From NCBI RefSeq assembly GCF_013122565.1, contig NZ_CP053258.1: a DNA stretch of 64,000 bases; one strand, 5' to 3'. The notes below the pieces were generated by a model. That model was not told where the DNA came from and did no database searches. It saw only the letters and a list, made by a program, of their open reading frames with translations. Of this stretch, positions 1 to 56,400 are shown one piece after another. The translations under genes were made by a program, and so were the position numbers. Source of the stretch: Escherichia coli (GTDB lineage Bacteria > Pseudomonadota > Gammaproteobacteria > Enterobacterales > Enterobacteriaceae). Position 1 is the stretch's first letter, and every line of letters begins with the position of its first letter.

Positions 1-277
1 GAGGGATTTACAGACCAGCGGCATAGTGGGGTTGTCAGCCAGTAAGGTGGGATACAGGCACAGTGATCGACATGGTGAGGTCAACGACAAAAAAAATGTT
101 GCCGTTCTGCCAACAGTTCCTGCCAGCATTCGGGCAACGAAGGGTTCTACTGGTGGATACACATACCAGGGGAATAAAGTCGTTTTAGCCTCTCCTTTAG
201 TAATCACCGGGGGTAATGAAATCAGCATCTGCATCCCTCGTCATGCCAGCCATCAATTTCAGTTGCTTATGTCCTGA

Positions 278-805
278 CTAAAAATAAGATGTGATACCCA
301 GGGTGACGATGTCGCTCATACGTCTTAGTTTCAGCTTGTACATAATGTTGAATTTCTGAATCTTTAATGTTTGTTGCGAAATATTGAGCGTCGACGTGAT
401 ATTGCTTTCATTTTTATTTTTCAGAATCAGTTGCATAATTTTGAACTGATTATGTGAAAAACATAATTCTGAATTCTTATGGGGCAAGTGTTTACCATAA
501 GTAATCTCAAGAAGATTTTTGATACTTTCTTTGCGGCTGACAAAATAAATAGGCGCTTTAGCTTTTAGTTTACTGATGTGATAAGGTGCCAAAACAATAA
601 TTCTCTCGGCATCTAATTTCTCCAGAAATTTAATCGCTTCTTCATCAAGGATATGATTGTGATAGGTATCAATGATAACCTTGAAGGGTTTATTGCCTAC
701 TTTTTTGATCTCTGACAGGGAATTGATTTTTATCATTTCGTGATTATCTTTCAACTGCCAAAAGCCCTGTAAAAGAAAAGAATCTTTCGTCATGAGAAAA
801 ATCAT
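278..805 (-). CDS. gadE: LuxR-family acid-resistance transcriptional activator GadE (175 aa; ORF track extends to 883 but the conserved start is MIFLMTKDSF)
   Basis: Translation matches GadE over its full length as recalled; C-terminal LuxR-type HTH; synteny with hdeD/hdeAB. Confidence 0.9.
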   Translation of the reverse strand: MIFLMTKDSFLLQGFWQLKDNHEMIKINSLSEIKKVGNKPFKVIIDTYHNHILDEEAIKFLEKLDAERIIVLAPYHISKLKAKAPIYFVSRKESIKNLLEITYGKHLPHKNSELCFSHNQFKIMQLILKNKNESNITSTLNISQQTLKIQKFNIMYKLKLRRMSDIVTLGITSYF

Positions 806-1603
806 AACTTGCTCCTTAGCCGTTATCGTTTCGAACATGTCATCCTTTTCATTATTTACATCCTTGTCCGAATCGTTGTTCAATATAGTAAACGCCTATA
901 AGAACTTTGCCCTTCGTGAACTAATACGTCTATTAACACTAATCAATACTTCAGATTTATCCATCACGCACTCCATATATTGATCCTAAGTAAAATTCCT
1001 GGTTGTTATCAATTTGTAAACAGTGAACAAAAAGTTAACGTTTGCGGATTACTGCCCAAGAATAAGTTATCAATAACCAGTTTGTGATCTCTGAAGAATA
1101 TTACTAAAGTTAAAATGTAATCCGATTTAAATATCGAGTCTCCTTGTTTCGACTTAAGCTGGCAATTGGATTGCCAGCTTTCTTTTAACGCATTGAAATT
1201 ACCTGAGTAAATAACGCATTCATGTCTTCAGGTTTTTATATAGCGTCTGGAGACACGGATATTTATGCAATGTAATCAACGCCAGTTGCAATAAAATGAA
1301 CCCGGATTACTTATTTAACCGCCCATATCATCAACGCTTACGGAACTCTTTGTTCACTTTCCCACAGCACTTTTAAAACATTAAACCTGACTACGGAAAA
1401 TATCAGCCATGATAATGTTTGAAATGGCTAATTTGCCATGGAATGAAAAAATTTAGATTAAATTCAGTAGGTTGAAATAATCACCAGCAGGTGATTATTT
1501 CAATGATAGTGCGAAAATGATCTGCAACGCTGTGAAGCGGAGAGAGTATTAATTAGATCATAGTCACATCAAGTGACTATGATCCAGATGACAACCGGGA
1601 TAA
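806..1603. promoter_or_regulatory. Long gadE upstream control region / hdeD-gadE intergenic (~800 bp, AT-rich, no convincing ORF)
   Basis: Non-coding AT-rich stretch between divergent-convergent AFI genes; established knowledge that gadE has an unusually large multi-promoter control region (an antisense sRNA, ArrS, is reported here in K-12 but I cannot place it precisely). Confidence 0.5.
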
Positions 1604-2176
1604 TTATTGCTGCTTAACGAACAAACTGGCGAAGCTGAACAGGCTGGCGGCGCTAAATATCAGTTCAATTCCCACCAGTGTCGAAACCAGCGTTACAGAC
1701 ACCATCGGCGTTGCACCAAGGAATATCCAGGCAATGACGATATCCAGCACACCAATAACGAGCTGTAGCCAGCTGCCTTTCATTGAACGCTGACGATACC
1801 AACTCATCAGGCGAATAACCCCTGCAACACAGAACAAACCGGCAATAAATGCCGCTATGGCAAAAATGCCCAGCTCCGGTGCGCGGATGAAGAAATAGCC
1901 GATCAATAAATAGGCGACTGCGACGAGGAAACCGGATAATACCGGCCAGAAATTATGACTGCGGTTGCTGAATAATCCAACAATAAGCGCAATGCCCGAG
2001 CAGATTAATAATGCACCCACTACCGTGCTTAAAATATCGCCAGAGACGAACGGGAAACTGATACACAGCAACCCGACGATAAACAGCAGCACGGCAATAA
2101 ACTGGATTGCTCTGCGATGTTTTTTAAGCATCTCCAGATCAAACTTCAAAATTGTTGCCTTATCTATATATAACAT
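1604..2176 (-). CDS. hdeD: Acid-resistance inner membrane protein HdeD (190 aa)
   Basis: Multi-TM hydrophobic translation matching HdeD; position divergent from hdeA. Confidence 0.9.
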   Translation of the reverse strand: MLYIDKATILKFDLEMLKKHRRAIQFIAVLLFIVGLLCISFPFVSGDILSTVVGALLICSGIALIVGLFSNRSHNFWPVLSGFLVAVAYLLIGYFFIRAPELGIFAIAAFIAGLFCVAGVIRLMSWYRQRSMKGSWLQLVIGVLDIVIAWIFLGATPMVSVTLVSTLVGIELIFSAASLFSFASLFVKQQ

Positions 2177-2430
2177 AGAACCACCCTATAAAATTAAGAA
2201 GAAAATCCCCTGCTATCAATCTATGCCAAAAACGCGTCTAAGAATGCAGTCGATTTAATAAAAATTTCCTAATTACAGTATCTGATGCATCTGTAACTCA
2301 TTGTATTGAAATAAAAATATCTGATTTTGATATTTTCTATCAACATGACATATACAGAAAACCAGGTTATAACCTCAGTGTCGAAATTGATTCGTGACGG
2401 CTCTTTCACTTTATAGTTGAGGATATTACG

Positions 2431-2763
2431 ATGAAAAAAGTATTAGGCGTTATTCTTGGTGGTCTGCTTCTTCTGCCAGTTGTGAGCAATGCAGCGGATG
2501 CGCAAAAAGCAGCTGATAACAAAAAACCGGTCAACTCCTGGACCTGTGAAGATTTCCTGGCTGTGGATGAATCCTTCCAGCCAACTGCAGTTGGTTTTGC
2601 TGAAGCGCTGAACAACAAAGATAAACCAGAAGATGCGGTTTTAGATGTTCAGGGTATTGCAACCGTAACCCCAGCTATCGTTCAGGCTTGTACTCAGGAT
2701 AAACAAGCCAACTTTAAAGATAAAGTTAAAGGCGAGTGGGACAAAATTAAGAAAGATATGTAA
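2431..2763 (+). CDS. hdeA: Periplasmic acid-stress chaperone HdeA (110 aa, signal peptide)
   Basis: Translation MKKVLGVILGGLLLLPVVSNA... matches HdeA; followed by hdeB. Confidence 0.95.
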   Translation: MKKVLGVILGGLLLLPVVSNAADAQKAADNKKPVNSWTCEDFLAVDESFQPTAVGFAEALNNKDKPEDAVLDVQGIATVTPAIVQACTQDKQANFKDKVKGEWDKIKKDM

Positions 2764-2878
2764 TTCCGGGAATGCGTTACATCGTACTTCCTTGCATATT
2801 GAACAGGCCGGAATATCTTCTTAAAAAGCAGCTATTCCTCCTGTTCATATATAATCTCTATATTGAATGGGTTACAAA

Positions 2879-3205
2879 ATGAATATTTCATCTCTCCGTA
2901 AAGCGTTTATTTTTATGGGCGCTGTAGCGGCTTTGTCACTGGTAAACGCACAATCTGCGCTGGCAGCCAATGAATCCGCTAAAGATATGACTTGCCAGGA
3001 ATTTATTGATCTGAATCCAAAAGCAATGACACCGGTTGCATGGTGGATGCTGCATGAAGAAACAGTATATAAAGGTGGCGATACTGTTACTTTAAATGAA
3101 ACCGATCTCACTCAAATTCCTAAAGTGATCGAATACTGCAAGAAAAACCCGCAGAAAAATTTGTATACCTTCAAAAATCAAGCATCTAATGACTTGCCGA
3201 ATTAA
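2879..3205 (+). CDS. hdeB: Periplasmic acid-stress chaperone HdeB (108 aa from MNISSLRK)
   Basis: Translation matches HdeB; signal peptide; ORF-track start at 2867 is probably 12 nt too long. Confidence 0.9.
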   Translation: MNISSLRKAFIFMGAVAALSLVNAQSALAANESAKDMTCQEFIDLNPKAMTPVAWWMLHEETVYKGGDTVTLNETDLTQIPKVIEYCKKNPQKNLYTFKNQASNDLPN

Positions 3206-3268
3206 TGAGGTACAAGTAAAAAGGAGTAGCAAGTTGAGCCATCTTGCTGCTCCTTTTTGCATTTTTAT

Positions 3269-3916
3269 ATGACAGCAGAATTTATTATACGTCTTATACT
3301 CGCGGCAATTGCCTGTGGCGCTATTGGCATGGAAAGGCAAATGCGCGGCAAAGGAGCAGGGTTACGCACACATGTATTAATTGGCATGGGAAGCGCCCTG
3401 TTTATGATTGTTTCGAAATATGGTTTTGCTGACGTGCTGTCTTTAGATCACGTCGGACTGGACCCCAGCCGTATTGCTGCTCAGGTGGTGACGGGCGTCG
3501 GGTTTATCGGTGCAGGTAACATTCTCGTTCGTAACCAAAATATTGTAGGTCTCACGACGGCAGCGGATATCTGGGTGACCGCCGCCATTGGTATGGTTAT
3601 TGGCAGCGGTATGTACGAACTGGGTATTTATGGTTCAGTGATGACCTTGCTGGTGCTGGAAGTCTTCCATCAATTAACCTTCCGCCTGATGAACAAAAAT
3701 TACCATTTACAGCTGACATTAGTGAACGGTAATACGGTATCAATGCTCGACTGGTTTAAGCAGCAAAAAATAAAAACGGATTTAGTTTCGTTGCAGGAAA
3801 ATGAAGATCATGAAGTGGTCGCCATTGATATCCAGCTTCATGCCACAACGTCGATAGAAGATCTGTTGCGATTATTAAAAGGTATGGCAGGGGTGAAAGG
3901 CGTTTCAATTAGCTAA
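3269..3916 (+). CDS. yhiD: MgtC-family inner membrane protein YhiD (215 aa)
   Basis: Translation from MTAEFIIRL... matches YhiD; hydrophobic N-terminal MgtC-like domain. Confidence 0.85.
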   Translation: MTAEFIIRLILAAIACGAIGMERQMRGKGAGLRTHVLIGMGSALFMIVSKYGFADVLSLDHVGLDPSRIAAQVVTGVGFIGAGNILVRNQNIVGLTTAADIWVTAAIGMVIGSGMYELGIYGSVMTLLVLEVFHQLTFRLMNKNYHLQLTLVNGNTVSMLDWFKQQKIKTDLVSLQENEDHEVVAIDIQLHATTSIEDLLRLLKGMAGVKGVSIS

Positions 3917-5457: not shown

Positions 5458-6681
5458 TTATGGTATTATATTCTGATAATGATTTGATAAGCGAATTCTT
5501 TTGCCTGTTGGTATTTCTATTTCCACCCCATAATTTATATCTTTTTCATTAGGGAGTGGCCTCTTTAAATATGGAGTGTGTGACATTTTTTTTGGGTTAA
5601 GCGTCTCGTATTGAAATACTTCGAATTGATATTCAGACATTTCTGCCCATGTTTGAATTTTATTGTATCGAGAAAGTGTCGTAAAGGCTTTAACTTGCTT
5701 ATAACATTCTTTTTTGAATTCTTGCTGATATTTTAATATGTTGTTGTATGAAAGATTGGTTATCCTGGCCTCTAAAAATTTAATTATTGTCGAAGCAATT
5801 TCCGCTTTTGCTCGTAAAAAGTTGTCATTAATGGTTAATAATGTTGAAAATAAACCTTCGATTTGTTTGTCAATATATTGTTCATCTTTATGTGATTTGG
5901 GGGTAGGGTGTTCCTTATGTGAAAAAATAGTGTCACATAAATTTGCGTCAGTGAAATTAATATTAAGTAGATCTTCGAAATAAAACCTTGACAAGGTCAG
6001 AACGAACCCGGACAGGTTCTGTCCTGTCATATTGAAATCAATAAAGTTGGTTCCGGCAAAGACTTTCATCCTGTTTTTATTTTCACTGTGCTCAAGATAT
6101 AACTTCGTCATTTTTTGATACAGACTTTGAATATCTTTTATATTAGTTGGTAAGTCAGCTCGTTGTTCAGCAATAAAATTAGTATCTGAAAACATGGTTT
6201 GGACACAGAATGTTATGGGTATTCCCTCTTCTACGCTAATTTTAGTTATGATTGCCTTGTCGGGTTTAGGATTAGCGACAACAATGATTCGACATTCAGC
6301 ACTTTTGTTCTTTTCGTATCTAATGTTACTAATTTGATTAAGTATTTCCTGTGCCTGCCGCGTAGGTGGTGTCGAACTTATCGATTCAATGTTAGTAATA
6401 AGACTTACAAGTTGAGCCACAACTTTGGAGTAGTCTGCATTTGTATATTTGGTGTTCGTGCGGCACGCATAAATTTGTGGGAGGTGTTGCCGCGCTAAAT
6501 CATATTGTTTAGGGTTGTATCCTTCTCCAGAGAATGTGGAATTAATGGGTTGTTGTTCTTCCCGATTATCACAAGGCCACATCGGTGTGTCTGGTGTTTT
6601 AACATTGTCGGTATCTGTTGTGCGGTTATAAATATCGCCGTGATATGTATTTATCATACCTGGGGTAAAGTCAATTGACAT
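5458..6681 (-). CDS. yhiS: Uncharacterized protein YhiS, intact 407-aa form
   Basis: Position between slp and arsC, where K-12 carries yhiS interrupted by IS5; long uninterrupted AT-rich ORF; no IS5 sequence here. Confidence 0.6.
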
Positions 6682-9087: not shown

Positions 9088-9441
9088 TTAACTGCAAATG
9101 TTCTTACTGTCTGCGGAACAGTTTTGTCGAGCCAGGTTGCGGACAATTGCCTGAATCTTTTCCTGTTCACATCGCCAGGCCTCATCAATAATTTTCGCCG
9201 CCCATGCTGGAATATGCGGCGATAAGCGGTAATGAACCCACTTACCTTGCTTGCGGTCCAGCAATAGCCCACTTTCACGCAGTAATGCCAGATGGCGGGA
9301 TATCTTGGGCTGCGACTGATCGAGGGCAGTGCAGAGATCGCAGACGCATAACTCTCCCAGCTCGCTGAGCAGTAAAACGATGCCCAGACGGGTTTCATCG
9401 GCAAGAATTTTGAACAGTTGGATGGGTAACAGAAATGACAT
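9088..9441 (-). CDS. arsR: ArsR/SmtB-family arsenic-responsive repressor ArsR (117 aa)
   Basis: Translation contains the ELCVCDLC metalloid-binding motif and a winged HTH. Confidence 0.9.
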   Translation of the reverse strand: MSFLLPIQLFKILADETRLGIVLLLSELGELCVCDLCTALDQSQPKISRHLALLRESGLLLDRKQGKWVHYRLSPHIPAWAAKIIDEAWRCEQEKIQAIVRNLARQNCSADSKNICS

Positions 9442-9591
9442 ATTGCGCTCCTGATTGTTGCAGGTAGTGTCTCTCTTCGAAGCGGATAAGTCAAAAACAT
9501 ATATGTTTTAACGAATGCGTATGTGCAGAGAAAGGTAATAGATGTGAGTTAAGAGTTGGGTATTTATTGGAAAAGACCTGAATCAGGACGT

Positions 9592-9620
9592 AAAAAAACC
9601 GACTTTGCGTCGGTTTTTTA
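9592..9620. terminator. Bidirectional rho-independent terminator-like hairpin (A-run, ccgac-ttt-gcg-tcgg stem, T-run)
   Basis: aaaaaaaccgactttgcgtcggtttttta: GC stem flanked by A7 and T6, so it can terminate on either strand. Confidence 0.6.
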
Positions 9621-9736
9621 CTTTCCAGCCCTGAGTTGGTGGCTCTGGCTGGAGTGAGATAGTCATCATCTAACGCATCAATGCTAATACCATACTGAAA
9701 CTATTGCAAGGACGTGCTGGTTTTATAACCCGCAAG

Positions 9737-9756
9737 TACTGTATGATTATCCAGTT
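9737..9756. promoter_or_regulatory. LexA (SOS) box, probably the dinQ promoter operator
   Basis: TACTGTATGATTATCCAGTT fits CTG-N10-CAG with an AT-rich core; lies in the arsR-gor intergenic where K-12 has the LexA-regulated dinQ/agrAB locus. Confidence 0.6.
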
Positions 9757-9831
9757 AGCTCTGAGACATTTTCACTCTGGCAATGCGCTTGACATCCTCC
9801 ACGCCCTGAATGACGAGGATCCCTGCTACGT

Positions 9832-11040
9832 TCAGGCTGTCGCCTGAATCATTTCGGTGGGTTCCTGCTTCAACGAGCGGCCTGACTGCACCCTCTCTCC
9901 ACAGGCAAGAACGGCGTGCCCCGCCGCTAAAATGTTACGAGCGCCGTTTACATCGGCGTTCGCTGTATATCCACATACCTGGCATCTGAATTTACTTTGT
10001 GACAGGCGGTTCTCTTTCGCTGTATGACCACAGTACGCGCAACGCTGGCTTGTATACGCTGGCGGAACAGCAAGCACCTGACCGCCACGCCAGAGCTGCT
10101 TGTACTCAAGCTGGCGGCGCATTTCATACCAGCCCTGATCCAGTATCGAACGGTTTAAACCTGATTTTGCCCGGACATTGCGCCCCGGCTGGCTGACCGT
10201 ACCCGCTGCTGACTTTGACATGTTGCTGACCTTCAAATCCTCAATGACTATCATTGCGTGGTTTTTGCTGACGGTCGTTGTGACTTTGTGAAGGTAGTCC
10301 CTGCGGATATTTGCGATACAGGAATGCAGTCGCTGTATTTTGCGTTTCTGCTTCTGCCAGTTGTTGCTGAATTTGACCCTGCGGCTTAACTGTCGCTGAA
10401 GTCTCGCCAGCGTCTTCTGGTTTTTCTGAAAACTGTTTACAGGCTCAAAGACTGTGCCATCTGACAGCGTGGCGAGTTTAGCCACGCCAGCATCCAGCCC
10501 GACCATTGATGCTGAAGGGTGAACCGGAGTGGATACTTCACTTTCTGTCTGAATACTGATGTACCACTTACCGCAGGACTGGCTGACAGTGACATTTTTC
10601 ACAACTCCCGTGACCTGACGGCTATTCCGGTAGCGCATCCAGCCCAGTTTCGGCAGAAAAATACGGCTGTTTTCCTGATCGAGCTTAACGCCCTGCGGGT
10701 AGCGGAATGCATCATCCTGTCCCCGCTTTTTGAATCGGGGAAAAGCAGCCCGCTTCCGGAAGAAGTTTTTGTAAGCCCGCTCAAGGTCTTTCAGTGACTG
10801 TTGCAATGGCTGTGAGGGCGAATCTTTAAGCCATTGCGTTTCAGTGGCGTTTTTCCACTCAACCAACCAGGAAGCCATTTTCCCGTAAGGGATGTATTTA
10901 TTACCGGCCTCATGATTCTCATTCTGACGTGCCAGAGCACGATTGAAAACGAAACGACATGCGCCTGCGAAGCGCCTAATTTCACGCTCCTGTTGACCAC
11001 CGGGCCTTAACTGGAATTTAAATGCCTGTAGTCGTTTCAC
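9832..11040 (-). CDS. tnpB: IS605-family TnpB/OrfB (RuvC-like nuclease with C-terminal zinc finger, 402 aa)
   Basis: Translation has the OrfB_IS605 layout, including the C-terminal CxxC...CxxC zinc ribbon (CAYCGH...CQVCGY) followed by [10 protein letters not shown]. Confidence 0.8.
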
Positions 11041-11047
11041 AGGTCAA

Positions 11048-11514
11048 ATGATACTTTGGTCTGTGAAAAAAGAAACCGATATCCGGCGTGGAAGGCATTG
11101 TGTTTTCCTGATGCATGTTCACCTGGTCTTTGTCCCAAATACCGACGCCAGATTTTTGACCATGACGCGACAGAAAAACTACGCACTTACTTTTCAAATG
11201 TATGTGCTGATTTTGAAGCTGAACTGGTTGAAATGGATGGCGAACCAGATCACGTCCATTTGTTAATTAACTATCCTCCCAAACTGGCGATATCCAGTCT
11301 GGTAAACAGCCTCAAAGGCGTATCGGGTAGGTTACTGCGACGAGATCGACCAGATATTGCAGTCAGGTATTACTACAAAGGCGTTTTGTTGAGTCCTGGC
11401 TATTTTGCCAGTAGCTGCGGAGGTGCGCCAATATCCGTCATCCGCCAATACATTGAACAACAGCAAACACCTGGTCAGGTGGAAAACCGCGCCTTATATC
11501 CCCGCCCTGAATGA
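11048..11514 (+). pseudogene. tnpA: IS200-like Y1 (HuH) transposase TnpA, apparently disrupted by a -1 frameshift near codon 30
   Basis: N-terminal motif HCVFLMHVHLVFVP is in the frame starting at 11048; the rest (PKYRRQIF...HVHLLINYPPK...LKGVSGRLL) is in the frame starting at 11056; the shift is in an A-run (cccaaatac where cccaaaatac is expected) around 11137-11142. Confidence 0.6.
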
Positions 11515-11535
11515 ACGGGGTTTTACGGCGCACCG

Positions 11536-11613
11536 GATAAAGCAATCATCGTTCTTGGGGCGTTAATTGCGCTGCTGGAACTGCTCCGCTTTCTGCTTCA
11601 GCTTCTGAACTGA
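11536..11613 (+). pseudogene. dinQ: dinQ remnant: type I toxin peptide coding sequence (…DKAIIVLGALIALLELLRFLLQLLN) lacking its own start codon and directly abutting the IS right end
   Basis: In-frame translation up to the stop at 11611-11613 matches the DinQ hydrophobic peptide as recalled (K-12 MIDKAIIVLGALIALLELIRFLLQLLN); no ATG/GTG precedes DKAII here. Confidence 0.6.
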
Positions 11614-11630
11614 TAGCGGAAACGTAACTA

Positions 11631-11662
11631 AGGGCAAAGAGCACACCACTCTTTGCCCTTTA
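11631..11662. terminator. Hairpin terminator between convergent dinQ and gor
   Basis: agggcaaagag-cacaccact-ctctttgccct perfect 11-bp stem immediately 3' of the gor stop (11667) and of dinQ. Confidence 0.65.
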
Positions 11663-11666
11663 ACAT

Positions 11667-13019
11667 TTAACGCATTGTCACGAACTCTTCTGCCGCCGTT
11701 GGGTGAATGGCGACGGTATTGTCGAAGTCTTTTTTGGTTGCGCCCATCTTCAGCGCCACCGCGAAGCCCTGCAACATTTCGTCCATACCAAAGCCAATGC
11801 CGTGAATACCGACAATCTTCTCTTCTGGCCCAACGCACACCAGCTTCATGCGGCACGGCTGGCGGTGAGTGGTGACGGCGGTATACATCGCGGTGAAAGA
11901 GGATTTATACACTTTCACCTGATCGTCGCCGTACTGCTCGCGCGCCTGCGGTTCCGTTAAACCAACAGTACCAATCGGCGGATGGCTGAAGACCACGGTC
12001 GGAATGTTGCTGTAATCCAGATGCTCATCCGGCTTGTTATTAAACAGGCGTTCAGAGAGGCGGCGACCCGCTGCAACTGCCACCGGTGTCAGTTCTACTG
12101 CACCCGTGTTATCGCCCACCGCGTAAATACCTTCAATGTTGGTGTTTTGATATTTATCGACGACGATATAGCCTTTTTCGTTGGTTTTAACGCCAGCGGC
12201 TTCGAGGTTGATGTTGTCATTGGCAGGCTCGCGACCAATCGCCCAAATCAGGCAATCCACCGTTTCACTGCGACCATCTTCCAGCTCCAGCGTCAGGCTA
12301 CCATCGGCATTTTTCACTACCGCTTTCGGGATGGCGTTGGTGTGCAACTGCGAGCCTTCGGCGTTCATCACTTCGACCAGCGTTTCAGAGATCATCGGGT
12401 CGAAGCTGCGCAGCGGCGCATGTTTACGCACAAACAGATGCGTTTTCGCGCCGAGGCCGTTAATCACGCCCGCCAGCTCAACGGCGATGTAACCCGCGCC
12501 AACAACCGCCACGCGCTCTGGCAAAGCAGGAAGGGCGAAGAAGCCATCAGAATCAATACCGTATTCCACGCCCGGAATATCCGGGTGGCTCGGACGACCG
12601 CCGGTGGCGATCAGAATATGATCGGCCGTGATGGTTTCACCGTTAACTTCCAGCGTTTTGGCATCAACGAAGCGGGCAAAGCCTTTGATTACATCAACGT
12701 TATTTTTACCGAGCACGTTTTCATAGGAAGTATGAATACGGTCGATATAGGCGGTACGGCTGGCGATCAACGTTTCCCAGTTGAATTTATTGATCGTGGT
12801 ATCGAAACCATAATCCGGACCGTACATGTGGATCGCTTCACGGATTTGCGCCGCGTGCCACATCACTTTCTTCGGTACGCAGCCGACGTTCACGCAGGTG
12901 CCGCCCAGCTCTTTGGCTTCAATCAGCGCGCATTTCTGACCGTACATAGCCGCGCGGTTGATGGAGGCAATACCGCCGCTGCCGCCGCCGATGGCGATGT
13001 AATCATAGTGTTTAGTCAT
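11667..13019 (-). CDS. gor: Glutathione reductase Gor (450 aa)
   Basis: FAD-binding GGGSGG N-terminus, redox-active [10 protein letters not shown] motif; full-length match to Gor. Confidence 0.95.
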
Positions 13020-33714: not shown

Positions 33715-33990
33715 ATGAGAACCAAGGTACAGGCTTTACGGAAGAAACAAAAAAATACATTGGATCAAATATTTAAAACTCCTGTTCCTCAAGGGATCAA
33801 GTGGTCTGATATAGAGTCACTGGTTAAAGCATTAGGCGGAGAAATTAAGGAAGGAAGAGGTTCGCGTTGTAAGTTCATACTAAATATGAGCGTTGCGTGT
33901 TTCCATCGGCCTCATCCGTCGCCAGATACCGATAAAGGCGCTGTAGAAAGCGTGCGTGACTGGTTACTAAGTATAGGGGTAAAACCATGA
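33715..33990 (+). CDS. Putative HicA-like (YcfA family) type II toxin, 91 aa
   Basis: Small basic protein with a ...GSRCKF...FHRPHP...LLSIGV... pattern resembling HicA mRNA interferases; 4-nt overlap (atga) with the following RHH gene. Confidence 0.5.
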   Translation: MRTKVQALRKKQKNTLDQIFKTPVPQGIKWSDIESLVKALGGEIKEGRGSRCKFILNMSVACFHRPHPSPDTDKGAVESVRDWLLSIGVKP

Positions 33991-34346
33991 TCAAACTGAA
34001 GACGCCAAACTCTATGGAGATTGCCGGGCAACCTGCTGTTATCACTTACGTGCCAGAACTGAATGCATTTCGTGGCAAATTCCTGGGCTTGTCAGGTTAT
34101 TGTGATTTTGTCTCTGACAGCATTCAGGGGCTGCAAAAAGAAGGGGAACTTTCCCTGCTAGAGTATCTTGAGGATTGTAAAGCTGCGGGTATTGAGCCGT
34201 ATGCGCGTACAGAAAAGATTAAGACCTTTACGTTACGCTATCCAGAATCGCTGAGTGAACGCCTTAATAATGCGGCTGCGCAGCAACAAGTCTCTGTTAA
34301 TACCTATATTATTGAAACACTGAATGAGCGTTTGAATCATTTATAA
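33987..34346 (+). CDS. Putative HicB-like antitoxin with C-terminal ribbon-helix-helix, 119 aa
   Basis: C-terminal RYPESLSERLNNAAAQQQVSVNTYIIETLNERL is a CopG/RHH-type DNA-binding motif; translationally coupled to the upstream small ORF. Confidence 0.5.
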   Translation: MIKLKTPNSMEIAGQPAVITYVPELNAFRGKFLGLSGYCDFVSDSIQGLQKEGELSLLEYLEDCKAAGIEPYARTEKIKTFTLRYPESLSERLNNAAAQQQVSVNTYIIETLNERLNHL

Positions 34347-34465
34347 ATTTTAGCGGCGTACATTACGCAGAATATCTGCCTTTACAGGATCTATCTATGC
34401 AACTGAACTTAATTTTATAAATTAAGTTCAGTTAATATCTTTTCTTTCCTCGTTTTAGAAATAAC

Positions 34466-44446: not shown

Positions 44447-44692
44447 ATGACCGATCTCTTTTCCAGCCCTGACCACACACTCGACGCGCTTGGCCTGCGC
44501 TGCCCGGAACCCGTAATGATGGTGCGCAAAACTGTGCGCAATATGCAGCCAGGTGAAACGTTGCTGATTATTGCTGACGATCCGGCGACGACCCGCGATA
44601 TTCCTGGGTTTTGTACCTTTATGGAACACGAACTGGTTGCTAAAGAGACGGATGGACTGCCTTATCGTTATTTGATTCGTAAATCGGGGTAA
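44447..44692 (+). CDS. tusA: Sulfur carrier protein TusA (81 aa)
   Basis: Conserved CPEP active-site motif ([14 protein letters not shown]). Confidence 0.95.
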
Positions 44693-44719
44693 GGTGGATC
44701 AGGCTAGCGGACCGATCGC

Positions 44720-44890
44720 GCTCAATTTTGCGGCTTGCAACCGGTTTGTAGGATGGATAAAACGTTCAAGCTGCATCTGGCGATACGGTGCGCAATGCCT
44801 GATGCGACGCTGTCGCGTCTTATCATGCCTACGAGTTTGATGCCCTGTGTAGGCTGGATAAGGCGTTCACGCCGCATCCGGCACGCAAAC
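44720..44890. repeat. REP/BIME cluster downstream of tusA
   Basis: gcctgatgcgacgctgtcgcgtcttatcatgcctac and gtaggctggataaggcgttcacgccgcatccggca. Confidence 0.8.
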
Positions 44891-44898
44891 GTATTGGA

Positions 44899-45216
44899 AT
44901 GCAAAAAATGGATTATTTAATTCCAGTTTGTCTGGCATTGCTTGGATTGCTGGCGATCTTCACCCCCAATTGGCTGATCCCTGTTTTTATCGTCGTGGGT
45001 GGATGGCTGGGAGTACTTGTCTGGGGCTGGCTCTGGCTAATGATATTTTTACCTTTACTTAACGGTGTCGGGCTTGCTTATGCCCTGTGGTTGATGTTCA
45101 AAAGGCCATCATTAGCATCCCGCCTGGTTGCTGCATTTAGTGTTATCTCCGTCATTCTGATGTTAGCGCTATATTACGCTATCCTGACCATGCCGCCGTT
45201 CCCGCCTCAGCATTAA
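44899..45216 (+). CDS. Hypothetical small membrane protein (105 aa, Trp-rich, 2-3 predicted TM helices)
   Basis: ORF with a strongly hydrophobic translation (…WLIPVFIVVGGWLGVLVWGWLWLMIFLPLL…); not recognised as a K-12 gene at this position. Confidence 0.4.
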   Translation: MQKMDYLIPVCLALLGLLAIFTPNWLIPVFIVVGGWLGVLVWGWLWLMIFLPLLNGVGLAYALWLMFKRPSLASRLVAAFSVISVILMLALYYAILTMPPFPPQH

Positions 45217-45275
45217 GCCCTGTATACGGAAATGATGCCAGAAGTGCCGCCGGGGCACTCTGGCGGCAAAAAGGT

Positions 45276-45842
45276 TTAACTTTCCCAGGTAATATCCAGC
45301 AACTCACTCTTCTCGTCGAAAGTAAATACCAGCAACTGATCCGAGATATCTTTTGATATCCCATAATCCACAGTCATTTTTAACCTGCCTGGAGCAGGGG
45401 CGGCTATCCAGAGATGAACGCCACGTAAAGTGATTTGCTTTGCACAAGCCTCGTGCGTAGGTGGAGTTATATCTAGAGATTGCAATGTTTCAGCATCGAG
45501 TTCATCTAAATGAAACTCAATAAACTCATCAACAAACGCATTTGTTCCTTTCTTTTGCGCAAGTATGTTGCGGATAATTTCAGTACATGCAGGGAGGCTA
45601 TCCAGGAGTGGAACGATTTTCTCAATGGGGGTATTTGGCAGGACATCTTCAAAAATATTTAGCCAGACAGTTCGTTTTTCATTGTTAAGCGTAACGGGTA
45701 CGTATTCCGCGAAACCCTCTGACTTATCAACAGCGAGCCTTCCCCAGTAATTTGAATTTAACGTAATCATCCATTGATTCCATTTATATGTTATGTAATG
45801 AGATGCTGCGAAGCCCGTATTAGATAGCTTCGCAGGGCTCAC
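45276..45842 (-). CDS. Hypothetical soluble protein (188 aa if the GTG at 45842 is used; about 164 aa from the internal ATG, MITLNSNYWGRL...)
   Basis: Long ORF immediately downstream of zntA on the same strand; no recognisable motifs; the first ~20 codons of the long form overlap a 9-bp-stem hairpin. Confidence 0.4.
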   Translation of the reverse strand: MSPAKLSNTGFAASHYITYKWNQWMITLNSNYWGRLAVDKSEGFAEYVPVTLNNEKRTVWLNIFEDVLPNTPIEKIVPLLDSLPACTEIIRNILAQKKGTNAFVDEFIEFHLDELDAETLQSLDITPPTHEACAKQITLRGVHLWIAAPAPGRLKMTVDYGISKDISDQLLVFTFDEKSELLDITWES

Positions 45843-45878
45843 CGTATATCATGGTCAGGATGACAGCAATCCGAAAAA

Positions 45879-48080
45879 CTACCCCTTCCTGCGCAACAAT
45901 CTTAACGCATTCGCCGTCACCAGCACCGTCGCACCCGTATCTGCCAGCACTGCCAGCCATAGTCCGGTCATCCCTAAAAGCGTGGTGACGAGGAAGATCC
46001 CTTTCAGCCCCAGCGCAATGGTGATGTTCTGGCGGATATTGGCGTGAGTGGCGCGTGCCAGTTCAATCATTTGCACCAGGCCGCGCAGGTGGTTATGGGT
46101 TAATGCTGCGTCGGCGGTTTCCAGCGCCACGTCTGTGCCGCTACCCATTGCAATCCCAATGGCGGCAGCTTTCATCGCTGGCGCGTCGTTAATACCATCA
46201 CCGACCATCGCCAGGGGCGCATGTTGATTCAGCTTGGTCACCGCTTTGACTTTATCTTCCGGCAAGAGGCCCGCTTTAAACTCCAGCCCCAGCTCCCCGG
46301 CAATTGCGGCCGCTGCGCGTGGATTATCGCCGGTGAGGATCACTCCTTTAACCCCCAGCGCGTTCAGTTCACTGATGGCAGTTGCAGCATCGGCGCGCAG
46401 GGTATCCTGTAACGCAATGACACCAAGCACGTCATTGTTACGTACTACCAGCACTACCGTTTGCCCGGCGCTTTCCAGTTCGTTAATTAAACCAGCAAAT
46501 GCATCAGCGGGATGTTTCCCGGCAGCGCATATCAACACGCGCTCACCGTTAACCTGCGCTTCAATGCCAGACCCGACCAGCGCCCGCTGTGATTCGGCGG
46601 CGGGAATGGCGAGTGCAGCAACCTGTGCTTCTCGCACGATGGCCTGCGCCAGTGGATGCGTCGCGCCTTGCTCGACCGCCGCCGCCAGTGTCAGCAGTTC
46701 AGATTCACTAATACCCGTTGCCGGATGAATCGCGGTAACGCGCGGTTTACCGACGGTCAGCGTACCGGTTTTATCAAACGCCACCTGGGTAACATGACCC
46801 AGCTGTTCCAGCGCCGCTCCGCCTTTAATCAACGCCCCACGACGCGCTGCCGCCGCCAGCCCGGAGGTAATCGCCGCAGGCGTTGAGATAACTAACGCAC
46901 ACGGGCAGCCAATCAGCAGCAGCGTCAGCCCTTTATAAATCCACTCCTGCCAGCTGGCGGCAAACAGCAGCGGTGGCACCAGCGTCACCAGCAGAGCGAC
47001 GGCCATAATCGCGGGCGTATAGATACGGCTGAAACGGTCGATAAACCGCTCAATGGGTGCGCGACGCTCTTCGGCTTCTTCGATCAGTTTTAGAATCCGG
47101 TCAATGGCGCTGGCACCCGGTTCTGACAGCACTTCCAGCGTTACCAGACGGTCTACGCTGGTGGCACCAGCAGGGACTTTATCGCCCGTCGCGCGCTCCA
47201 CCGGAATGGATTCTCCGGTCAGGGCGCTTTCATCAAAACTGGCAAACGGTGAGAGCAGTTTACCGTCGGCAGGCAAACGTCCACCTGCGGCGACTTCAAT
47301 CATATCGCCAGGGCGCAGGCTGTTAATCGCCACCTCTTCCCGCTCACCGTTACGCAGGCGCGTGGCGGTTTCTGGTTTCAGCGCCATTAACGCGCTAACG
47401 CCCTGACGCGCGCGGCTGGCGGCCCAGCCTTCCAGTCGTTCACCAATCAAAAACAGCAGCAACACCATCGCAGCTTCAGCCGTTGCGCCAATAAACAGTG
47501 CACCAATAGCGGCTACGCTCATTAAGGTTTCAATGGCGAAGTAGCTGCCGGATTTGATCAGCCGTAATGCCTGACGAGCAATCGGGTACAGCCCAACCAG
47601 CGTGGTCGCGATAAACGCCAGTTGCCCGAACGGATGATTAAATTGCTCCAAACCCCAGCTGATTGCCATCATCACGATAAGCGTAATCAGCGGCAGATTC
47701 TCTTTCAGGCGCGATGCTTGTGGCTCGTCGGCGGCCTGCTCATCGCGCAGGGAATAGCCCGCTTTTTGCACCGCAGATTCAACTTGTGCACGGATGTCAT
47801 TGTCGGCATCAACCACCAGTTTTTCGGTGGCGAACAACACCTGTACCTGATTCACGCCTGCAAGCTGGCGCACGGCATTTTCTACCTTGCGCGCACAGGC
47901 GGCGCAGTCCATGCCGCTGACTTTCCAGCTATAGCGGGTGCCGGAGACGTTTTCAGAGAGAGTTGGCGTGCTGGAACATGCGCCGTCGCAGCAACAGTCG
48001 TTGGCGTTCTGTACCGTGGTTAGCGGTTTGAACGCAGCAAATTGAGGGGCTTTCTTGCCGTGATTGTCAGGAGTCGACAT
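45879..48080 (-). CDS. zntA: Zn(II)/Cd(II)/Pb(II)-translocating P-type ATPase ZntA (about 732 aa)
   Basis: N-terminal CCCDGAC and GMDCAAC metal-binding motifs, CPC transmembrane motif, DKTGT phosphorylation site. Confidence 0.95.
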   Translation of the reverse strand: MSTPDNHGKKAPQFAAFKPLTTVQNANDCCCDGACSSTPTLSENVSGTRYSWKVSGMDCAACARKVENAVRQLAGVNQVQVLFATEKLVVDADNDIRAQVESAVQKAGYSLRDEQAADEPQASRLKENLPLITLIVMMAISWGLEQFNHPFGQLAFIATTLVGLYPIARQALRLIKSGSYFAIETLMSVAAIGALFIGATAEAAMVLLLFLIGERLEGWAASRARQGVSALMALKPETATRLRNGEREEVAINSLRPGDMIEVAAGGRLPADGKLLSPFASFDESALTGESIPVERATGDKVPAGATSVDRLVTLEVLSEPGASAIDRILKLIEEAEERRAPIERFIDRFSRIYTPAIMAVALLVTLVPPLLFAASWQEWIYKGLTLLLIGCPCALVISTPAAITSGLAAAARRGALIKGGAALEQLGHVTQVAFDKTGTLTVGKPRVTAIHPATGISESELLTLAAAVEQGATHPLAQAIVREAQVAALAIPAAESQRALVGSGIEAQVNGERVLICAAGKHPADAFAGLINELESAGQTVVLVVRNNDVLGVIALQDTLRADAATAISELNALGVKGVILTGDNPRAAAAIAGELGLEFKAGLLPEDKVKAVTKLNQHAPLAMVGDGINDAPAMKAAAIGIAMGSGTDVALETADAALTHNHLRGLVQMIELARATHANIRQNITIALGLKGIFLVTTLLGMTGLWLAVLADTGATVLVTANALRLLRRKG

Positions 48081-56127: not shown

Positions 56128-56394
56128 ATGTCTGCTGTTAAAAAGCAGCGTATCGATCTGCGTTTAACTGACGATGACAAAAGTATGATTGAGGAAGCTG
56201 CAGCGATATCTAATCAGTCCGTCAGCCAATTTATGTTGAACAGCGCTTCGCAGCGGGCTGCGGAAGTGATTGAACAGCATCGGCGGGTGATCCTCAATGA
56301 GGAATCCTGGACGCGGGTGATGGATGCGCTGAGTAATCCACCGTCACCAGGTGAAAAGCTAAAACGTGCGGCAAAACGTCTTCAGGGAATGTAA
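56128..56394 (+). CDS. DUF1778 (RHH-like) antitoxin of a GNAT-type toxin-antitoxin pair (88 aa); resembles AtaR/TacA-type antitoxins
   Basis: Small protein followed 7 bp later by a GNAT acetyltransferase ORF; typical antitoxin-toxin order and size; not present at this junction in K-12 (recollection). Confidence 0.6.
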   Translation: MSAVKKQRIDLRLTDDDKSMIEEAAAISNQSVSQFMLNSASQRAAEVIEQHRRVILNEESWTRVMDALSNPPSPGEKLKRAAKRLQGM

Positions 56395-56400
56395 TAATTT

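Follow-up and report, generated by a model that had tools for sequence, protein, structure and literature searches.

IS609 and a 166-bp deletion very probably inactivate the SOS-inducible type I toxin gene dinQ in Escherichia coli

Organization of the arsR-gor region

The window analyzed here is a 64,000-nucleotide stretch of Escherichia coli DNA (RefSeq assembly GCF_013122565.1, contig NZ_CP053258.1), numbered from its first letter. Its interval between arsR and gor, where K-12 has the LexA-controlled toxin gene dinQ and the small antisense RNA genes agrA and agrB, contains a copy of the insertion sequence (IS) IS609. A preliminary interpretation made without database searches (the sequence-only reading) proposed a natural inactivation of a type I toxin at this place, and this proposal is supported by alignment with K-12 and by family searches: the window very probably carries a null allele of dinQ, made by IS609 together with a 166-bp deletion.

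From left to right, positions 9088-13019 hold arsR (minus strand), a 2.2-kb spacer and gor (minus strand). Alignment and synteny match this segment to the arsR-dinQ-gor region of K-12 in reversed orientation, and no complete E. coli genome matches its flanks at more than 98.0% identity. The following features are recognized on the dinQ side of the spacer and at the element itself:

9590-9673, minus strand: the only agr small-RNA gene in the window (Rfam RF02891, AgrB; 108 bits, full length, the sole match above threshold)
9737-9756, plus strand: LexA operator of the dinQ promoter, CTG-N10-CAG, TACTGTATGATTATCCAGTT, a 20-mer identical to K-12 in the alignment
9754-9788, plus strand: retained dinQ leader, +1 to +35, including the inhibitory "sequence 1" (U16-C28) and abutting the right end of IS609 directly
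9789-11536, minus strand (the active "top" strand): IS609, IS200/IS605 family, 1748 bp, with ends set from seven copies and four empty sites
11536-11613, plus strand: DinQ coding remnant, codons 3-27 and stop, with the substitution I19L (K-12 dinQ alignment, NF041472, translation)
11630-11660, strand not assigned: terminator hairpin shared by dinQ and gor, kept (terminator scan and K-12 alignment)

The operator, which has been described for dinQ (PMC3567139), lies on the arsR side of the element, where the sequence-only reading had placed it. A promoter consensus scan of the window did not pick up the dinQ promoter, and the positions of promoter and +1 are taken from published mapping (PMC3567139, PMC5066626); +1 falls at window 9754, as set by the statement that GUG starts at G195 (PMC5066626) and by the K-12 alignment. 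In its present setting the LexA-controlled promoter would be directed into the right end of IS609, antisense to tnpB and to the presumed guide RNA.

The dinQ lesion

In the alignment, K-12 reads CTGGCAATGCGC, then ATAAACGC...(166 bp)...GGGTGATTG, then ATAAAGCAATC, whereas the window reads CTGGCAATGCGC, IS609, ATAAAGCAATC. The left junction is GCGC/IS and the right junction is IS/ATAAAGCA, so that the element stands between +35 and +202 and dinQ has lost 166 bp relative to K-12, from +36 to +201, before the sequence resumes at +202. On the published map of the primary dinQ transcript, sequence 1 occupies U16-C28, the activating cleavage falls at +44, AgrB pairs with G88-A119, the Shine-Dalgarno sequence is G184-G187 and the start codon GUG lies at G195 (PMC5066626). 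The deletion has removed the +44 processing site, the AgrB pairing site, the Shine-Dalgarno sequence, the GUG start and codon 2. The missing 166 bp were sought in the 64-kb window, and only the expected 33-nt similarity to the agr repeat was found; no intact leader and start therefore lie elsewhere within it, and the sequence-only reading withstands its own refuting condition there. An intact leader is the usual state in the species, since 4604 of the 5426 complete E. coli genomes searched here cover at least 80% of a K-12 probe for leader plus start.

Downstream of the TGA at 11512-11514, what is left on the gor side is a frame that reads TGFYGAPDKAIIVLGALIALLELLRFLLQLLN and a stop; it contains none of the codons ATG, GTG and TTG and is preceded by no Shine-Dalgarno sequence. 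The G of its Asp codon is contributed by the last base of the IS. The remnant scores 47 bits against the NCBIfam profile toxin_DinQ (NF041472; cut-off 30) and covers profile positions 2-22 of 22, which together with the K-12 alignment bears out the earlier description of a start-less DinQ-like frame. Translation also confirms that it is in frame with the tnpA stop, as had been remarked; this relation is owed to the copy-specific insertion of a T at 11512, and nothing evident follows from it.

The window thus shares with the K-12 dinQ-agrAB locus the position between arsR and gor, the LexA box, residues 3-27 of the peptide except for I19L, and the terminator, and differs from it in lacking +36 to +201 of the mRNA and in having one agr gene where K-12 has two. 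The Shine-Dalgarno sequence, the GUG and the +44 region that belong to a translatable mRNA are all absent. Because +36 to +201 are deleted and no in-frame start codon exists, the window dinQ is a remnant and not a functional member of its family, and no DinQ peptide would be expected from it. The toxin frame is uncoupled from its SOS promoter, the promoter with its 35-nt leader lying 1.75 kb from the start-less frame, and this part of the sequence-only reading stands; the start-less state had been put down to the insertion alone, and here the deletion has to be added. A simple insertion without deletion is ruled out by the K-12 alignment.

The IS609 element, its ends and its target

The following features belong to the element:

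11537-11540, minus strand: TTAT target and left cleavage tetranucleotide (ATAA on the plus strand), equal to dinQ +202 to +205, from filled versus empty sites
9789-9830, minus strand: right end (RE), with a subterminal imperfect hairpin at 9794-9820 and the top-strand terminus ...GTCAA (copy alignment, single-strand DNA fold)
11490-11536, minus strand: left end (LE), with a hairpin at 11500-11520 and 16 nt from the hairpin foot to the cleavage site on the top strand (copy alignment)
9832-11040, minus strand: tnpB (insQ), 402 aa, intact (NCBIfam NF040570, RNA-guided endonuclease family; 381.7 bits, cut-off 100)
11048-11514, plus strand: tnpA pseudogene, a split open reading frame (ORF) divergent from tnpB and ending at the copy-specific TGA 11512-11514 (seven-copy alignment, translations)

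In a megablast search of the complete genomes, copies at many loci, including ydcO, yedK, yfeD and yeaR, share 98.5-98.8% identity with the segment from 9789 to about 11540, and RefSeq labels some of these copies IS609 or "IS609 family." The IS605-type element of about 1.75 kb with divergent tnpB and tnpA that had been noticed between arsR and gor is therefore identified, through these labels, as the 1748-bp IS609. All seven aligned copies start with TTGACATCCTCC on the plus strand and end in ...GGCGCACCGG, followed by ATAA. The target was defined on four pairs of filled and empty alleles, at yedK, yeaQ-yeaR, a TetR-family regulator gene beside ytfB, and yfeD-gltX. In all four pairs the empty site consists of the left flank, ATAA and the right flank, with neither duplication nor loss. 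The insertion point of IS609 is 3' of 5'-TTAT-3' on the active strand, which is the minus strand of the window; the length of 1748 bp and this target follow from the seven-copy ends and the four filled/empty pairs.

These data replace the bounds first suggested for the element (9780-11535) and the target first suggested for it. The TTAC that had been taken for the junction lies inside LE (11523-11526) on the non-active strand, and the four empty sites show TTAT; the string ggttttac containing it, placed before at 11518-11525, is found at 11519-11526, within the element. The empirically set ends and TTAT target should help to annotate IS609, which is common in E. coli, together with its TnpB guide.

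The element shows the features of the IS200/IS605 family: a Y1 (HUH) TnpA, insertion 3' of one constant tetranucleotide that is not duplicated, ends that lack terminal inverted repeats, and a subterminal imperfect hairpin at each end on the same strand. Compared with other E. coli copies of IS609, the dinQ copy agrees in its ends, in its TTAT target and in the lack of a target duplication. It differs in its frameshifted tnpA, in an indel in the left-end hairpin that is seen only at dinQ, and in the 166-bp deletion of its flank, which is absent at the four other IS609 sites tested. In the copy alignment, the hairpin change, which affects the loop, consists of an inserted T (11512) and the replacement of a G by A (11514), both exclusive to dinQ-located copies. 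The variant LE hairpin folds at -8.0 kcal/mol, against -9.6 in the usual form, and the RE hairpin is weaker (-3.1 to -4.5 kcal/mol); at such short lengths neither LE nor RE has a striking z-score. The idea that the LE mutation immobilized the element is unsupported, as the variant hairpin still folds.

No literature on the biochemistry of IS609 was found. IS608 of Helicobacter pylori, the mechanistic model for "peel and paste" single-strand transposition, resembles IS609 in its subterminal hairpins, in inserting 3' of a tetranucleotide kept beside the left end and in a right end terminating in TCAA. IS608 differs in its target (TTAC, against TTAT for IS609), in its co-directional genes (divergent in IS609) and in the distance between cleavage site and hairpin (19 nt, against 16 nt). 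Just 5' of its left hairpin foot IS608 has the tetranucleotide AAAG. The corresponding bases here are AAAA, which fits a TTAT rather than a TTAC target. On a chromosome arranged like that of K-12, the active IS609 strand presumably lies on the leading-strand template, given where the locus stands relative to oriC. Excision and insertion of IS608 favor the lagging-strand template (PMC5027513). Given a K-12-like arrangement, the active strand of the dinQ copy would by this analogy lie on the side disfavored for excision.

Distribution and history of the allele

The same two junctions occur in six of the complete genomes: F9792, F8111-1SC3, F6326-C1, 2014EL-1345-2, 88-3493 and LR882990. Two of these carriers have been serotyped, both as O169:H41. 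Because six independent complete genomes have both junctions, the structure is neither a chance pattern nor an assembly artefact. The T insertion and the G-to-A change in LE are common to the window and F9792 copies, and a 43-nt probe for the LE variant matches the six carriers only, once each, at dinQ. Since the junctions are shared and the LE indel is exclusive to the dinQ copies, the comparison points to one ancestral event and to a rare, inherited allele that is identical by descent. Independent insertions in the window and O169:H41 lineages are ruled out by the LE indel, which is found nowhere else in the genome set.

In other respects the window and F9792 lineages stand well apart: their divergence is 1.4% in the flank made up of dinQ remnant and gor, 4.9% across arsBR and 2.7% inside the IS. 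The transposase genes of the two copies are also broken differently. In the window one base is missing after 11134 (GTCACCAGA has become GTCCCAAA), a loss that separates the HUH/Tyr core from the N-terminal strand, and in F9792 the frameshift lies at the position corresponding to 11380. The window TnpA still scores 116.2 bits against NF033573 (cut-off 55), the match being limited to profile positions 17-126 owing to the frameshift. Ordinary copies, of which three were inspected, have a tnpA frame without a stop inside the element that runs via the LE hairpin into host DNA, so that the C-terminal tail differs from site to site and RefSeq labels the gene "incomplete, missing C-terminus"; an internal TGA is found only in the dinQ copies, where the inserted T at 11512 creates it. 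With a frameshifted tnpA, the dinQ element would be unable to move alone and would require transposase from another copy. No other IS609 copy that could serve as such a source lies within the window.

The window frameshift (GTCCCAAATACC, 11130-11140) occurs identically in the yfeD-gltX copy of IS609 in strain AR13438 and is absent from the F9792 dinQ copy.

The window copy has 19-24 mismatches to copies elsewhere, against 47 to the F9792 copy. The frameshift shared with the yfeD-gltX copy and this greater nearness to other copies suggest gene conversion among IS609 copies. The shared frameshift also suggests an alternative, namely a defective subfamily mobilized in trans.

Routes to the deletion

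The K-12 arsR-gor spacer (876 bp) contains ATAA in the needed orientation only four times, at dinQ -500, -28, +36 and +202. The deletion spans precisely the interval between two consecutive TTAT sites, +36 and +202, the last two of the four; its left junction is that expected of an insertion at +36 and its right junction that of an insertion at +202. With a background of about 0.0056 occurrences of the motif per position, TTAT-to-TTAT boundaries are unlikely to be a coincidence. Both ends of the deletion also carry a 5-bp direct repeat, ATAAA (+36 and +202). The present allele can be told from conceivable intermediates by its junction strings: GGCAATGCGC/TTGACATCC marks the present allele, AACGGGTGATTG/TTGACATCC an IS at +202 with the leader intact, and GCGCACCGG/ATAAACGCTTTC an IS at +36 that leaves the downstream part whole. 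The complete E. coli genomes contain no intermediate allele, the LE variant is absent from the GTDB species representatives, and a degenerate right-junction pattern for the +36 and +202 sites gave no match in metagenome contigs. Three routes could lead to the same product: insertion at +36 with slippage at ATAAA, a deletion made by the transposase, or two copies of the element with recombination between them.

The first of these routes, which has two steps and an appealing rationale, is a tentative one and less likely than not. IS609 would have entered at +36, cutting off the LexA promoter and sequence 1 and placing the remaining leader downstream of tnpA. Read-through RNA would then resemble the translatable +44 form and yield DinQ without SOS induction, so that a second hit, a deletion of the start codon between the ATAAA repeats, would be favored by selection. 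An insertion at +36 would give exactly the left junction seen, tnpA is directed towards dinQ, the repeat is present at both deletion ends, and dinQ mRNA is known to be translatable once its first 44 nt are lost (PMC5066626, PMC3567139). However, AgrB would still repress such transcripts, the intermediate allele appears in neither the complete E. coli genomes nor the metagenome contigs, the route would depend on the strength of the tnpA promoter, and slippage must have used precisely the repeat that abuts the IS.

It is doubtful, on present evidence, that the transposase itself made the deletion. With IS609 already settled at one TTAT, TnpA would have cleaved one end of the element in place and, treating it as a target, a neighboring TTAT; by exchanging the strands it would have joined that end to a new flank and freed a 166-nt single-stranded circle. 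This proposal is a subordinate hypothesis about the path, and the same null allele results from it. It accounts for a deletion spanning exactly one TTAT to the next against the low background frequency of the motif, and its chemistry would be the normal integration half-reaction (PMC3201880, PMC5027513). If the first insertion was at +202, moreover, the ends share no microhomology, and only a site-specific process explains the ATAA boundary. Against it, all four of the other IS609 sites are clean insertions, ordinary slippage could have acted through the 5-bp ATAAA repeat, and the complete E. coli genomes, GTDB representatives and metagenome contigs contain no intermediates. A search for literature on deletions adjacent to IS200/IS605 elements found none, and such deletions are not reported in the literature searched. 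The broader claim, that the TTAT-to-TTAT deletion records an in vivo Y1 reaction not yet described, in which the end is joined to a nearby target and host DNA is excised as a single-stranded circle, is rather improbable. If it were true, IS200/IS605 elements could delete neighboring DNA precisely, with their target motif as the boundary.

The third route is unlikely as well. Two copies of IS609 in the same orientation, at +36 and +202, would have recombined by homology, with loss of one copy and the 166 bp between them. Recombination of directly repeated IS copies is a standard route to deletion, and both junctions are perfect IS609 insertion junctions. The route nevertheless needs two rare insertions 166 bp apart, and no genome with the single or the double insertion was found among the complete E. 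coli genomes, the GTDB representatives or the metagenome contigs.

Loss of the AgrB antitoxin gene

The sequence-only reading referred to the agrA/agrB site of K-12; the site is there, with one gene left instead of two. In a three-way alignment the window has a single agr gene where K-12 and F9792 both have agrA and agrB, and no second agr copy occurs within the window. The flank of the surviving gene on the arsR side is agrB-like and its 5' antisense region is agrA-like, about 231 bp having been lost between the two agr repeats. This is the product expected of recombination between the agrA and agrB direct repeats, by which the loss may have arisen, and it suggests that the AgrB antitoxin is gone and that the remaining gene is of the AgrA type. 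The regulator of dinQ is AgrB and not AgrA (PMC3567139). Neither AgrB nor its pairing site is thus found in the window, where G88-A119 are deleted and the surviving gene has an agrA-type 5' part.

Because the dinQ lesion is common to both lineages and the agr loss is not, the toxin was likely lost first and the antitoxin later. A dead toxin would make AgrB dispensable, and AgrB would then have been lost by repeat recombination in the lineage of the window.

In F9792, the agrB antisense region (about 1680-1720 of the F9792 locus) differs from K-12 agrB at many positions (gagaatgcccacatctaacgg versus gagagagttcttatctaacag). This divergence could reflect relaxed constraint after loss of the toxin, or a different allele.

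TnpB and its putative guide RNA

Beside the broken tnpA, tnpB is intact in all seven copies. The protein contains D183, E267, CxxC at 334 and 353, and D363, that is, the RuvC D-E-D triad and the zinc finger. Its ratio of nonsynonymous to synonymous changes (pN/pS) against most copies is 0.25-0.6, a figure obtained from very few changes. A candidate guide lies next to the gene:

9769-9950 (approximate), minus strand: putative TnpB guide RNA (omega RNA, or right-end element RNA, reRNA), made up of the tnpB 3' end and RE and then of a flank guide from 9788 to about 9769 (GCGCATTGCCAGAGTGAAAA), by analogy with ISDra2

In the ISDra2 model, the TnpB guide comprises the 3' end of tnpB, the right end and about 16-20 nt of flank, and the transposase target serves as the adjacent motif (PMC8612924). 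IS609 resembles ISDra2 in the RuvC and zinc-finger motifs of TnpB and in a gene adjoining the right end, from whose flank a guide is expected. The two differ in that ISDra2 TnpB is an RNA-guided nuclease with a reRNA, whereas the guide of IS609 is proposed from sequence and its Rfam match is sub-threshold (RAGATH-18 at 9862-9905, 29.6 bits, below the gathering score of 44.9). The guide flank GCGCATTGCCAGAGTGAAAA has a 22-nt match in K-12, where it is preceded by TTAT.

By analogy with ISDra2, intact TnpB would use a guide RNA ending in GCGCAUUGCCAGAGUG, and TTAT followed by GCGCATTGCCAGAGTG would be its putative target, with TTAT as the adjacent motif. Such a guide would match the wild-type dinQ allele and any joint left by excision, so that both could be cut and the insertion retained. 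The TnpB complex may in this way favor retention of the insertion at dinQ.

Status of the remnant

Several points weigh against the account given above. Transcripts of tnpA are likely to read through into the remnant, a near-cognate codon could conceivably start translation, and RefSeq calls a 22-aa coding sequence from ATC. The window covers 64 kb of the genome, and a second copy of dinQ is possible elsewhere. The toxin-first order is drawn from a comparison of two lineages. As for retention by TnpB, the omega RNA is a candidate whose RAGATH-18 match falls below threshold, and nothing on the target-adjacent motif or activity of IS609 TnpB was found in the literature searched.

The RefSeq call deserves attention in its own right. 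In F9792 the remnant is annotated as a 22-aa "damage-inducible type I toxin DinQ" starting at an ATC right after the IS (3831-3899 of the F9792 locus), and a gene caller likewise gives a 22-aa DinQ coding sequence in the window, at 11545-11613. In the six carriers RefSeq has a 22-aa "DinQ" annotated next to the transposon genes, the coordinates of the coding sequence having been inspected in F9792 only. That the remnant is still a working gene, in which RNA reading through from tnpA is translated at a non-canonical start into a shortened DinQ of about 22 aa, is very improbable: both annotations and a score above the NCBIfam cut-off speak for it, but neither a Shine-Dalgarno sequence nor an ATG, GTG or TTG stands in front, all known regulatory parts of the mRNA are deleted, and the profile is only 22 positions long, so that a start-less remnant already exceeds the cut-off. 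The 22-aa coding sequence is probably an artefact of this 22-position profile, and the start-less RefSeq "DinQ" of F9792 is flagged here accordingly.

With dinQ read as a null allele, the nearest parallel lies in the hok loci of E. coli K-12 and B, where insertion elements have caused the inactivation (Pedersen and Gerdes, 1999, cited in PMC7232551). Here too a chromosomal type I toxin has been silenced by an IS. The toxin family and the IS family are different, and dinQ has in addition the target-to-target deletion and the loss of an antitoxin small RNA. No literature on dinQ disrupted by an IS, including the present allele, was found. IS609, the dinQ-agrAB system and IS-inactivated type I toxins were all known beforehand, and the sole unusual feature is the deletion spanning exactly target site to target site, a small mechanistic curiosity that leaves current understanding unchanged. 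The allele would be a small example of the decay of a chromosomal type I toxin-antitoxin system, in which a membrane toxin under SOS control was knocked out naturally and its antitoxin small RNA was lost afterwards, and its carriers offer a strain background for comparing DinQ-dependent phenotypes.

Other differences from K-12 in the window

Away from dinQ, the window departs from K-12 at several places. Near 5938, yhiS is without the IS5 that splits the K-12 gene, and the alignment is continuous over the K-12 insertion point. At 33643-34460, about 0.8 kb stands in place of the K-12 rhsB-yhhH-yhhI block (about 6.7 kb). This replacement contains a HicA-family toxin gene (33715-33990; Pfam PF07927, 37 bits) and, overlapping it in the position of a HicB-type antitoxin, an ORF of 119 aa (33987-34346).

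The tusA-zntA interval (44684-45886) measures about 1.2 kb, against about 115 bp in K-12, and includes a hydrophobic ORF of 105 aa (44899-45216) and one of 188 aa on the minus strand (45276-45842); an NCBIfam search gave no match for either. Between livJ and panZ, where K-12 has only about 185 bp, positions 56128-56928 hold a TacA-type antitoxin (PF08681, 90 bits) and a GNAT acetyltransferase resembling the toxin TacT.

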